64,000 nt of DNA. Source: Patescibacteria group bacterium (GTDB taxonomy: Bacteria > Patescibacteriota > Patescibacteriia > SG8-24 > DYFX01). The position numbers and the translations under genes are program-made. Below are positions 20,875-26,672 of this stretch, piece by piece. The stretch covers positions 20,699-84,698 of the forward strand of contig JBBTWH010000005.1 in NCBI GenBank assembly GCA_038062835.1. The letters are read 5' to 3'. How positions within the stretch are numbered: position 1 is the stretch's first letter; every line of letters starts with the position of its first letter. Under the pieces are notes generated by a model, which did no database searches, had not been told where the DNA came from, and saw nothing but the letters and a program-made list of their open reading frames with translations.

Positions 20875-23493
<2,619 letters not shown>

Positions 23494-23623: not shown

Positions 23624-24400
23624 TTACGGTCGAGTGGATTCTCCTAATAGTGGGAAGGCGTAGCGCGCATCTTTTTCAGTGGCGGCTGAAATTCCCACGG
23701 GCGGCCTTGCGAACGAGCCCGCAAATTTTGCGATAGAGACACGGCCAAGGAAGACGGCGACGATGTTCACGCAGGTCAGAAGGTTATTACGCCTCCCCGT
23801 ATCCGTTTTTACGTTGTAACCGAGCGTGTGGTATTTCACGTCTTCATTCCAAGCCAAGGCATCAAGATAGTGCAAGAAGGCTTCTAGGGGCATCCCGTAG
23901 GCGCTGGGGACTGTCTTTGAAATTTCATCGACGACTTCCTGCGGCGGTTCATACCTCCAAATTCCACTCGCGACTTCCTTGTGGTCGAGTACATAGGCGG
24001 ATCTGAACAGCAGACTACCGAGCAACTCCAAAGTCATTTCATCCTCTCTTCCGATTTTCTGAAGCTCTTCGAACACGTCGCGGAACGATGCGGGCGTTCC
24101 CACAATGGCCCCCTTTTGCTCAAGACAAGGGAGCATGTCGTTGGGGTTATTCCCGATGTGCCCATCCTTATACTTGCATCTGTCGTAATCTGGCGCAGCC
24201 TCCTTGCCGGGTTTTCCAAGCAAAATCCTATTATCACCTTTGGTCCAAACGGGTTGATAGGACTTTGCTTCTTGTGATGTGCCTGTCGGCCAAGAAATCG
24301 CCTCTTCAACCATGGCCAAGCGGACGAGCCCGCTGCGCTTCTTATCAATCTTGCCGGTTTCCAACAGTTGAGCAAGCCTATTTTCGCGTGCATCAGTCAT
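23624..24400 (-). CDS. Hypothetical protein on low-GC island, divergent from the DNA methyltransferase (candidate restriction endonuclease or other partner)
   Basis: The tracked ORF runs to 24655, but its first roughly 85 codons are antisense to the MTase start and promoter. Likely start is MTDARENRL... near 24400. About 52% GC versus about 65% in flanks. No recognisable family. Possible D..(18 residues)..DHK PD-(D/E)xK-like spacing. Confidence 0.45.
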   Translation of the reverse strand: MTDARENRLAQLLETGKIDKKRSGLVRLAMVEEAISWPTGTSQEAKSYQPVWTKGDNRILLGKPGKEAAPDYDRCKYKDGHIGNNPNDMLPCLEQKGAIVGTPASFRDVFEELQKIGREDEMTLELLGSLLFRSAYVLDHKEVASGIWRYEPPQEVVDEISKTVPSAYGMPLEAFLHYLDALAWNEDVKYHTLGYNVKTDTGRRNNLLTCVNIVAVFLGRVSIAKFAGSFARPPVGISAATEKDARYAFPLLGESTRP

Positions 24401-24517
24401 GTTTGTATGGTAACTTGATCTTCCTGTCCGTGTGGGATATATTATCAACAGGCCCGTTTTGACACGTTCGCCTGCAGTCATACTACCATTCTCACACCAT
24501 TGCAATATCAACTCTAT

Positions 24518-26260
24518 ATGGCAAAGCAATTGAGGGCAATCGACTTCTTCTGCGGTGCGGGCGGTTGGTCCGAAGGGCTCAGGCAACAGGGAATCAAGGT
24601 CGTGATGGGCATCGACAACTGGCGCCCGGCCGTCGAGACCCACAACATCAACCACGGCCTCAACGACGTCGTCGGTGACGTCTTGTCGTTGGAGGGCGAT
24701 GTCGATGCGACTATCGAGAAGCTTCCTGATACCGAAATTATCGTCGGCAGCCCGCCGTGCATCTCTTTCTCGATGTCGAACAAAGCAGGTAAAGCTGACA
24801 AGTCACTCGGTATCCGCCTAATCGAGGCCTACTTGCGCTTCGTCGCCGTGAAGAAGCACAAGAAACGTTCCATTCTGCAAGCTTGGTACATGGAGAATGT
24901 CCCGAACTCCAGGAATTTCGTGCAGAAGACGTACACGTTTGCTGATTTGAATCTTTCAGCTTGGGCCAAGAAGAACGGCAAGAATCCGAAGGCTGTCGCA
25001 CTGAACGTCCAGGACAACGGCGGGATTCTCTGCGCGGCGGACTATGGATCACCCCAGAGTCGTGAACGTTTCGTTTGTGGCGAAATGACAAAGCGCAACG
25101 GTTCCGTAAAGGTCGGTGAATTCTTGGCTCCGAAAGTGACCAACGCGAACAGCCGCGTAACGTTGGAGGACATCAAGGGAAAGATGCCGAAGCCGACGGA
25201 GAAGCCTGGGAACAAGGCTTGGGCAGATCCGAACTACCCGAATTTGAAATTGAAGGTCCAAGACATCACGGATCATTTCTACGACCCCGGTGTCTACCGT
25301 TCCGAATGGGAAAGCGCGAAAGCCGCCAAGGTGAATCACCCGTTCATGGGCAGAATGTCCTTCCCAGAGGACCGGAAGCGGCCGAGTCGGACGATTATGG
25401 CAACAAGGTCTGGAAGCACGCGCGAGGCCATCATCTACCCTTCCGAATGGGGTCATGTCGGCGACGGTCAGTATCGCCTCCCCACGATTCGTGAGGCGGC
25501 TTCCCTGATGGGTTTCCCTATCACCTACCAGTTCACGGGTGGTGAAGGATCTAAATGGCGGCAAATCGGCAATGCCGTCTGCCCGCACATGAGCGCCGCT
25601 ATCGGCGCGGCTCTCCGAAAGGCATTCGGCATGCGGCCGATTCCGGTCGCAAAAATCATGTTTGACGCCAAGCACGTGAAGGATGAGCGTATCCTGAATC
25701 TCAATACTTTTGCGCCGCGTTCCTACGACAAGCCGCCTCTTAGAAAGGCTGGGGCGAAGTTCCGACGTCAGCCATTCAAGTCTGGCAACATGACCGTAGC
25801 CCTGATGAATTTCGATCCTAGGGTGAGCATCGGTGCGGCTGTAGCCTCAGATTGGCGCGCTGTCGTCTTCGTGGGTGCCGGGAAAGTGTATGATACGGTC
25901 GAGCTGGGCCTTGATGACCTCCGGGTGCTAGAAACGAGCCTGGCCTCCCGAAAAGAAGGTCGCACATTCATTGCCGAGTTTGAGAAGAAGTTCGATGGTA
26001 AAGTCGCTCCTACCGCCGAGCTCCAAACCATCTTCGAAACGAACCAGCCTGGCACGAAGGCGCTCGCGCCCTCCGAACTCGTTCAGGCGGTTGCAGATCT
26101 CGCTGAGAAGGTCGGTAGCGGTCCTGCTCCGGTCACCAATCCCATCATGACGAGGGTCCGGAAGGCAGAAGTGCCCCATCAGCAACTGCTTGCCATGTAC
26201 GCCCTTGCGCGCATCTCAGCAGAAATCAAGCGCGCCGCGGCCGTTCCGGAGCCGGCTTGA
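24518..26260 (+). CDS. DNA (cytosine-5)-methyltransferase with about 200-aa C-terminal extension
   Basis: Motif I FFCGAGGWSEG, motif IV GSPPCISFS (PC catalytic Cys), motif VI ENVPN, motif X QIGNAV. Residues about 380-586 extend beyond the catalytic domain with no recognisable motif. Confidence 0.9.
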   Translation: MAKQLRAIDFFCGAGGWSEGLRQQGIKVVMGIDNWRPAVETHNINHGLNDVVGDVLSLEGDVDATIEKLPDTEIIVGSPPCISFSMSNKAGKADKSLGIRLIEAYLRFVAVKKHKKRSILQAWYMENVPNSRNFVQKTYTFADLNLSAWAKKNGKNPKAVALNVQDNGGILCAADYGSPQSRERFVCGEMTKRNGSVKVGEFLAPKVTNANSRVTLEDIKGKMPKPTEKPGNKAWADPNYPNLKLKVQDITDHFYDPGVYRSEWESAKAAKVNHPFMGRMSFPEDRKRPSRTIMATRSGSTREAIIYPSEWGHVGDGQYRLPTIREAASLMGFPITYQFTGGEGSKWRQIGNAVCPHMSAAIGAALRKAFGMRPIPVAKIMFDAKHVKDERILNLNTFAPRSYDKPPLRKAGAKFRRQPFKSGNMTVALMNFDPRVSIGAAVASDWRAVVFVGAGKVYDTVELGLDDLRVLETSLASRKEGRTFIAEFEKKFDGKVAPTAELQTIFETNQPGTKALAPSELVQAVADLAEKVGSGPAPVTNPIMTRVRKAEVPHQQLLAMYALARISAEIKRAAAVPEPA

Positions 26261-26672
26261 TTCCAGAAAGTGTCAGGAAGTTGAATATCTTGCCGGTCAC
26301 CTTTAGGCGATCGGTTTTGATTTCATGTTCCCAAACGCGTATATATTTCCAACCGAGCCTCCGCAGCTTCGCAAAATTACGACGGTCCCGGCGTCGGTTT
26401 CTCTCGATCTTATCTCGCCAGAACTTCTGACGAAGCTTGTGCCTCCAGGCCGGGTAGCGATACCCGTGCCAGAAATCGCCGTCTACGAAAATCGCGAGCT
26501 TTCGGCTCGGAATGGCGAGGTCGGGTGAGCCAGGCGCTTTCTTGTAGTGTTTCTGAAAGTGCACCTTACGCCTCCGCAACTCACGAAAAACAAATATCTC
26601 AAGGCTCGTGTTCTTACCGCGCACCCGCGACATGATGCGGCTACGGATTTCTTTGGAGAACTTGTCGGGCAT
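26226..26672 (-). CDS. vsr: Very-short-patch repair endonuclease (Vsr)
   Basis: FVDGDFWHG signature, basic about 148-aa protein. Convergent with the MTase and overlaps its end by 35 nt. Confidence 0.9.
   Translation of the reverse strand: MPDKFSKEIRSRIMSRVRGKNTSLEIFVFRELRRRKVHFQKHYKKAPGSPDLAIPSRKLAIFVDGDFWHGYRYPAWRHKLRQKFWRDKIERNRRRDRRNFAKLRRLGWKYIRVWEHEIKTDRLKVTGKIFNFLTLSGIKPAPERPRRA

Follow-up and report, generated by a model that had tools for sequence, protein, structure and literature searches.

What might about 200 further residues do on a DNA methyltransferase that is already complete by its last conserved motif? The question is raised by a gene in a 64,000-nucleotide stretch of contig JBBTWH010000005.1 from a Patescibacteria group bacterium (assembly GCA_038062835.1, positions 20,699 to 84,698), from here on referred to as the window and numbered from its first letter. 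The gene, located at 24518..26260 on the forward strand, encodes a long-form C5 DNA cytosine methyltransferase, as judged by its open reading frame (ORF), a match to PF00145, the naming of its homologues and independent gene calls. The C5 methylases are among the best-studied enzymes acting on DNA and their architecture is considered settled, namely ten motifs plus one target-recognition region (TRD). The last ~208 residues of the window protein lie outside this scheme and are predicted to form a separate, well-folded C-terminal domain (CTD, residues 373-580; 25634..26257, forward strand). Our analysis provides good support for the CTD being a previously unannotated domain family without sequence or structural relative in the libraries searched, one that is widespread and conserved and is nonetheless ignored by annotation pipelines. 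A role of the CTD in enlarging the DNA-binding surface of the enzyme is tentatively proposed below.

A complete methyltransferase with a conserved extension

The ORF spans 24500..26260 on the forward strand and would encode 586 amino acids if counted from a TTG codon. Translation likely starts at the ATG at 24518, resulting in 580 amino acids plus a stop codon, because three independent gene calls give this length and the N-termini of homologous proteins fit it. The initial annotation mixed two counts, combining the 586-residue length from the TTG with 24518, which is the position of the ATG; this is a minor point. Three independent assemblies of this contig, which belongs to a groundwater Patescibacteria metagenome-assembled genome (MAG), all yield the 580-residue product. 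It is 100% identical to a database entry (P0001) named 'DNA cytosine methyltransferase, Patescibacteria group bacterium'. In Pfam, PF00145 matches residues 6-366 with 121.3 bits (gathering cut-off 22). The NCBIfam model for the 'dcm' superfamily, TIGR00675, scores 84.2 bits and thus falls below its curated cut-off of 100.65, and by this model the protein is predicted to be a divergent C5 methyltransferase.

The catalytic C5 methyltransferase module comprises residues 1-372 (24518..25633, forward strand), as delimited by the Pfam match, by the motif coordinates and by sequence matches to PDB entries (DNMT1, M.HhaI and M.HaeIII), all of which are confined to the core and end at about residue 376. 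Motif I (DFFCGAGG, residues 9-16), motif IV (GSPPCISFS, residues 77-85, with GSPPC at 77-81), motif VI (MENVP, residues 125-129, with MENV at 125-128), motif VIII (QSRERF, residues 180-185, with QSRER at 180-184), motif IX (TIREAASLMGFP, residues 323-334) and motif X (GNAVCP, residues 351-356) follow one another in the standard order and are invariant across 113 homologues. The canonical TRD is located between motifs VIII and IX (residues ~196-318; 25103..25471, forward strand). It is well conserved, with an identity that tracks that of the catalytic core, and its invariant columns in the 113-member alignment include D237, P238, Y255, D256, G258, W264, K271, H274 and F282-E284. Taken by its sequence, the gene product is predicted to be a complete type II-style C5 cytosine methyltransferase. 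Similar to M.HhaI and M.HaeIII (PF00145), it possesses the full motif set and a TRD between motifs VIII and IX; however, those enzymes end soon after motif X (~320-430 aa), whereas the clade described here adds a domain of ~200 aa that is without counterpart in any characterised or solved C5 methylase.

The initial annotation had held that the methylase is finished by motif X and that the remaining ~200 residues contain no recognised motif. Both points are borne out: the PF00145 match ends at residue 366 with all motifs and the TRD in their normal places, and residues ~373-580 are unmatched in Pfam and NCBIfam at E<=1. Two alternative explanations considered there fail. The extension does not correspond to the TRD or variable region of known methylases, since it lies after motif X and the canonical TRD already occupies residues 196-318 between motifs VIII and IX. 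Nor is it a fusion created by a frameshift, as the same one-ORF architecture is found in hundreds of independent assemblies, including those of cultured isolates, and is under purifying selection. The best 120 homologues measure 472-615 aa, with few falling outside 545-615, and nearly all of them span 96-100% of the query at ~50% identity; in every one of the 115 among them in which the GNAV of motif X could be located, 210-265 residues follow it. Using a pattern derived from the extension, 72 loci were collected from one-genome-per-species contigs. Extension and methylase are encoded by a single ORF of ~556-603 aa across these loci, the exceptions (~4 of 72) being cuts at contig ends or local disruptions. 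The ratio of non-synonymous to synonymous substitution rates (dN/dS), calculated against two relatives that are 88-90% identical, is 0.07-0.10 for the extension and 0.03-0.065 for the core, both rough values due to saturated dS. The extension is clearly under purifying selection.

Anatomy, relatives and distribution of the C-terminal domain

The C-terminal residues, proposed in the initial annotation as a fused extra domain, are unmatched in domain libraries and yield a confident fold in structure prediction. When modelled alone with AlphaFold2 from 30 sequences, the CTD is predicted as a small β-sheet followed by a helical bundle, with a predicted local distance difference test score (pLDDT) of 88.6 and a predicted template modelling score (pTM) of 0.82. 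The full-length protein, modelled from 113 sequences, reaches a pLDDT of 93.1 and a pTM of 0.90, and this confidence suggests a fixed orientation of the CTD relative to the methylase. Residues 373-410 have a pLDDT of 58-84 when the CTD is modelled alone and of 84-96 in the full-length protein, and in these models the first ~40 residues of the CTD would fit a linker packed on the catalytic domain.

Alignments of 24 and 113 members divide the CTD into two parts. CTD-a (residues 373-462; 25634..25903, forward strand) starts with a conserved linker of the form LNLNTF .. F..PP.RK, which is followed by a basic, β-rich part with predicted strands at 425-430, 447-452 and 459-462 in the full-length model. 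The median net charge of CTD-a is +6 and its isoelectric point (pI) 9.8. It contains the signature of the family, KFRxHPFKxGNMTVALxNF (residues 414-432; 25757..25813, forward strand), which reads KFRRQPFKSGNMTVALMNF in the window protein. Across the 113 sequences, R416, K421, L429 and N431 are invariant and F415, H418, P419, F420, G423, N424, M425 and T426 are near-invariant, with the window protein carrying Q instead of H at position 418. Downstream of the signature, W446 and G455 are also invariant. Residues 411-430 reach a block conservation of 0.72-0.86, the level of the catalytic core. CTD-b (residues 463-575; 25904..26242, forward strand) is a predicted helical bundle with helices at 465-476, 479-492, 499-508, 518-532 and 554-575, the last of which is the conserved P..Q..AMYA helix. 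It evolves faster, with a mean column majority frequency of 0.41 and a dN/dS of 0.06-0.11, and keeps residues F484, Q503, P518, P553 and Q556.

Searches of sequence and structure libraries returned no relative of the CTD. It has zero matches in Pfam and NCBIfam at E<=1, and a scan of 30 diverse CTDs against Pfam produced no recurring family. The core matches the DrmMII, DruM and MTase_II models of PADLOC and in this resembles the DrmMII of class 2 DISARM; however, those PADLOC methylase models that reach the C-terminus of the methyltransferase stop at residues ~367-376, none extends past ~376, and no PADLOC model of any kind matches the CTD. A CTD profile searched against all PDB chains gave a best E-value of 0.046, which is not significant, and Foldseek found nothing at E<=0.001 in the PDB or among viral predicted structures. 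The PH-like superfold (PH, PTB, EVH1, Tfb1-PH) may be compared with CTD-a as a lead and not as a membership, given that it has 7 strands versus ~5 predicted and no Foldseek match. No description of this CTD was found in the literature.

The CTD is specific to one chromosomal methylase clade. A HMMER profile of the CTD retrieved 127 proteins from 1.84 billion cluster representatives; a word-indexed homologue search with the CTD alone had returned nothing, which reflects the limited sensitivity of that method. All full-length matches are ~540-590 aa long and carry the CTD at their C-terminus, and among the 1.84 billion representatives no CTD was found standing alone or on another type of protein. 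The shorter matches look like N-terminally truncated gene calls, because in those inspected (ten scanned with Pfam, three read) the end of PF00145 or the residues following motif X are found just upstream of the CTD. P0121 contains a short upstream stub only, and in P0140, a metagenomic protein of 749 aa, a methylase fragment with the CTD is joined to the ParB-like protein usually encoded by the next gene. A search by tblastn of 50,697 phage and 72,556 plasmid records gave no match to the CTD, and the full-length protein matched plasmids through its core only, at <=37% identity. Overall, the clade numbers hundreds of members, which are spread over at least ten phyla. The 72 loci are mostly from Bacteroidota, including cultured Dyadobacter, Sphingobacterium, Mucilaginibacter, Pontibacter and Polaribacter, and the others from Patescibacteria, Chloroflexota, Gammaproteobacteria, Acidobacteriota, Planctomycetota, Verrucomicrobiota, Omnitrophota and one member of the Erysipelotrichaceae.

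Two atypical proteins should be mentioned here. P0117 (472 aa) keeps CTD-a and lacks the helical CTD-b; its motif IV reads SPSC instead of SPPC, and it may be a decaying copy. The nearest plasmid relative of the window methylase is archaeal, being encoded on a Haladaptatus sp. plasmid (NZ_CP119793.1; L084:4001-5866) next to a MutH/Sau3AI-family endonuclease and a second dcm gene. This 621-residue protein shares 37% core identity and has an unannotated C-terminal extension of ~285 aa, which was considered as the same domain and rejected (hhalign probability 0.9%, not significant). Within this methylase lineage, additions at the C-terminus may be more widespread.

Possible roles of the domain

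The initial annotation listed target recognition, oligomerisation, regulation and a fused second activity as options and preferred none of them; the present evidence argues against a canonical TRD. We hypothesize, with a probability of roughly 0.4, that the CTD is an accessory DNA-contact module that enlarges the DNA-binding surface of the enzyme. That it serves the methylase itself is suggested by its being always present in cis, rigidly docked and strongly constrained. A DNA-contact function is favoured because conservation in the CTD peaks in a basic hairpin, which carries an invariant Arg and Lys and adjoins a conserved linker. In the mechanism we envision, the linker (LNLNTF..PP.RK) that follows motif X and the basic β-hairpin KFRxHPFKxGNMT with R416 and K421 would dock rigidly on the catalytic domain. 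The docked CTD would then act in cis by contacting the phosphate backbone or flanking DNA, and this contact could raise affinity or processivity or help to position the enzyme on its site, with the variable helical bundle behind the hairpin serving to buttress it. Two points weigh against this proposal. The C-terminal core of the methyltransferase is likewise basic (pI 9.8), so that charge discriminates poorly, and ordinary C5 methylases, at 320-420 aa, manage without any such addition, meaning that whatever the CTD contributes need not be DNA contact. If the CTD does merely add non-specific DNA affinity, the gain for methylase biology would be modest, though useful.

It is less likely that the CTD is instead a protein-docking or regulatory platform that couples the methylase to neighbouring effectors or times methylation through autoinhibition or licensing. 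The genomic arrangement is what speaks for such a role: among the 74 loci whose neighbouring genes were clustered, 63 have the methylase in first or second position of a tight multigene operon, with the next start codon located only a few bases past the methylase stop codon, and P0140 joins methylase and CTD to the downstream ParB-like protein in one chain. The faster evolution of the helical half of the CTD would also agree with such a role. On the other hand, the CTD is conserved across unrelated partners, namely Sau3AI/MutH-like and BglII-like endonucleases, a 258-residue ORF product and two multigene helicase systems referred to as systems A and B. In 2,278 pairwise comparisons, the identities of both CTD-a and CTD-b follow core identity and not a shared partner system. 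Pairs from systems A and B are as similar as pairs within system A, and in a regression the effect of a shared partner system on CTD identity at equal core identity is 0.00. Based on the unrelatedness of the partners and this absent effect, partner-specific docking is unlikely. Further, the 258-residue family also accompanies methylases that lack the CTD.

The extra modules known from bacterial C5 methylases are N-terminal helix-turn-helix (HTH) regulators. M.SsoII, M.EcoRII and M.MspI carry a short N-terminal HTH region of this kind that binds an operator in the restriction-modification (R-M) intergenic region. These enzymes are similar in concept to the window methylase, in that an extra nucleic-acid-related module is attached to a C5 core, but they differ in that the CTD is C-terminal, ~200 aa long and not an HTH. 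The upstream R-M intergenic regions of four loci were examined for a conserved, operator-like inverted repeat and contained none, which argues against an autoregulatory operator there and against the docking or regulatory platform.

It is improbable that the CTD is a new sensor or regulatory domain with a new fold that makes the methylase a universal plug-in modification module suited to widely differing restriction machineries. Such a domain could read the methylation state of the site, acting in a maintenance-like manner on hemimethylated DNA, or could gate methylation so that newly acquired nuclease or helicase effectors are tolerated.

Whatever its role, methylase and CTD are reused as one unit beside at least five unrelated restriction or defence modules, and two of these modules are multigene helicase systems that include several uncharacterised proteins. 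Learning what the CTD does would explain what allows a methylase to be carried over from one defence system to another, would give annotation a new domain family and might bring to light a new mode of DNA binding or of methylation regulation.

We assign a low probability to an oligomerisation or stability module, for example one that dimerises the methylase on a palindromic site without direct contact to DNA or partners. The rigidly packed helical-bundle subdomain in the AlphaFold2 models, the occurrence of the CTD in cis only and strong purifying selection without a recognisable catalytic signature are all compatible with this idea. However, conservation peaks in the basic hairpin and linker and not in the helical bundle, and most type II C5 methylases are active as monomers.

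A second enzymatic activity, such as a nuclease, a glycosylase or another DNA modification, appears very improbable. The invariant R416, K421, N431, Q503 and Q556 together with the near-invariant H418 might conceivably make up an active site. Against this, both an invariant acidic residue and a metal-binding signature are absent, position 418 is Q in the window protein, no PDB enzyme fold is similar and neighbouring genes already provide nuclease and repair functions. This evidence weakly disfavours an additional activity. Finally, an assembly or frameshift artefact or non-functional read-through, which could be suspected from the 8-10 unconserved residues at the end of the protein, the overlap of the ORF end with the downstream vsr gene and the general tendency of chance ORFs to run long in high-GC DNA, is refuted by the identical architecture that more than 100 homologues and 72 genomes share, cultured isolates among them, by the dN/dS of 0.07-0.10 in the extension and by the confidently predicted fold.

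Partner genes, target site and the window cassette

Methylases of this clade occur as modification genes beside at least five unrelated sets of restriction or defence genes. System A, found at 36 of the 74 loci, is a conserved five-gene operon made up of an optional Vsr, the methylase, a ParB-like protein (~446 aa), an SNF2 helicase (~662 aa) and a NOV_C/DUF3883 protein (~325 aa), with examples at L018:9956-10933, L019:7887-9875, L050:6546-7865 and L004:6680-11031. The ParB-like component has a DGNRR motif and a weak match to PF18763 and is given no name by PADLOC or Pfam, while the NOV_C/DUF3883 protein is nuclease-like. System A resembles a split version of HmaA, a protein combining SNF2 and DUF3883, but contains a different methylase (PMC11232893).

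System B (27 of 74 loci) encodes the methylase followed by a NERD+SF1 helicase (~559 aa), a protein of ~800 aa and a DrmA-like helicase that matches the PADLOC DrmA model at 1e-20; examples are located at L035:6604-12576, L021:8322-10790 and L014:8220-10574. The ~800-residue proteins belong to two unrelated families and have no Pfam or PADLOC match. Judged by its gene content, system B is predicted to be a DISARM-like system with uncharacterised parts. While these 27 relatives share with DISARM an operon containing a DrmA-like helicase, the window copy differs in being part of a simple three-gene cassette and not of a DISARM-like operon.

In system C (8 of 74 loci), a MutH/Sau3AI-type endonuclease is encoded divergently from the methylase. 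At one such locus (L001/L002:1522-4952), a GHKL (HATPase_c) protein is encoded after the MutH/Sau3AI-like endonuclease, which recalls the occurrence of MORC-like ATPases in R-M systems with a C5 methylase and Vsr (PMC2292703). The remaining 3 loci include two that carry the 258-residue ORF. At L086:2059-2673, a BglII-family endonuclease (PF09195) takes the place of this ORF beside a methylase-vsr pair that is 90% identical to that of the window, and a comparison of the two loci suggests that the nuclease has been exchanged beside a modification module that was conserved.

The methylation target probably contains GATC. This prediction follows from the Sau3AI/MutH-like and BglII-like partners of related methylases combined with the conservation of the TRD across systems. 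The observed-to-expected ratio (O/E) of GATC in the window is 0.82. AGATCT is the most depleted 6-mer palindrome of the window, with 11 sites observed versus 25 expected (O/E 0.44); this depletion is only marginal after correction for multiple testing. Both values are suggestive and not decisive.

In the window itself, the methylase sits in an R-M-type cassette of three genes, the others being the 258-residue ORF and vsr, and resembles classical type II C5 systems in its adjacent nuclease candidate and vsr. The 258-residue ORF (23624..24400, reverse strand) was identified by gene calling, is divergent from the methylase and represents a candidate cognate restriction endonuclease. It is unmatched in Pfam, NCBIfam, PADLOC and the PDB and shows no recognisable nuclease domain. 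All 218 homologues, from bacteria and archaea, are named 'hypothetical'. A gammaproteobacterial MAG (L017) encodes a homologue with 44% identity in the same position beside the methylase, showing that the ORF is conserved next to the long methylase in two phyla, and a second cassette with the ORF in the same position is 88% identical. Elsewhere, members of the family adjoin an unrelated 423-residue C5 methyltransferase without CTD or a PF01555 N4/N6 methyltransferase. By pairing with different methyltransferase classes, the family behaves as expected of a type II endonuclease, and we consider it a candidate new family of type II restriction endonucleases. Similarity of the 258-residue protein to the BglII-like or 257-residue ORFs of L086 and to the upstream ORF of L004 was looked for, and none was found.

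The third gene, vsr (26226..26672, reverse strand), encodes a predicted very-short-patch repair endonuclease, matching TIGR00632 with 99.4 bits (cut-off 97.85), PF03852 with 65.6 bits (threshold 27) and the PADLOC Vsr model. It is convergent with the methylase gene and the 3' ends of both overlap by 35 nucleotides (26226-26260). The methylase residues encoded in the overlap (AAAVPEPA) are the sole unconserved part of the CTD. In E. coli, dcm and vsr are co-directional. The overlap of a C5 methylase gene with vsr is a feature shared with the E. coli Dcm-Vsr pair, from which the window pair differs in its convergent orientation and in the placement of the extension, which is N-terminal in Dcm and C-terminal here; the Dcm subfamily model NF007772 scores only 13.5 bits for the window methylase.

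No tRNA or Rfam family was detected at the borders of the region surrounding the cassette. The GC content between positions 23000 and 29000 is 0.52-0.58, compared with 0.61-0.68 in the remaining window. Besides the three genes of the cassette, this low-GC stretch contains a few small ORFs, and it is compatible with an island acquired by horizontal transfer.

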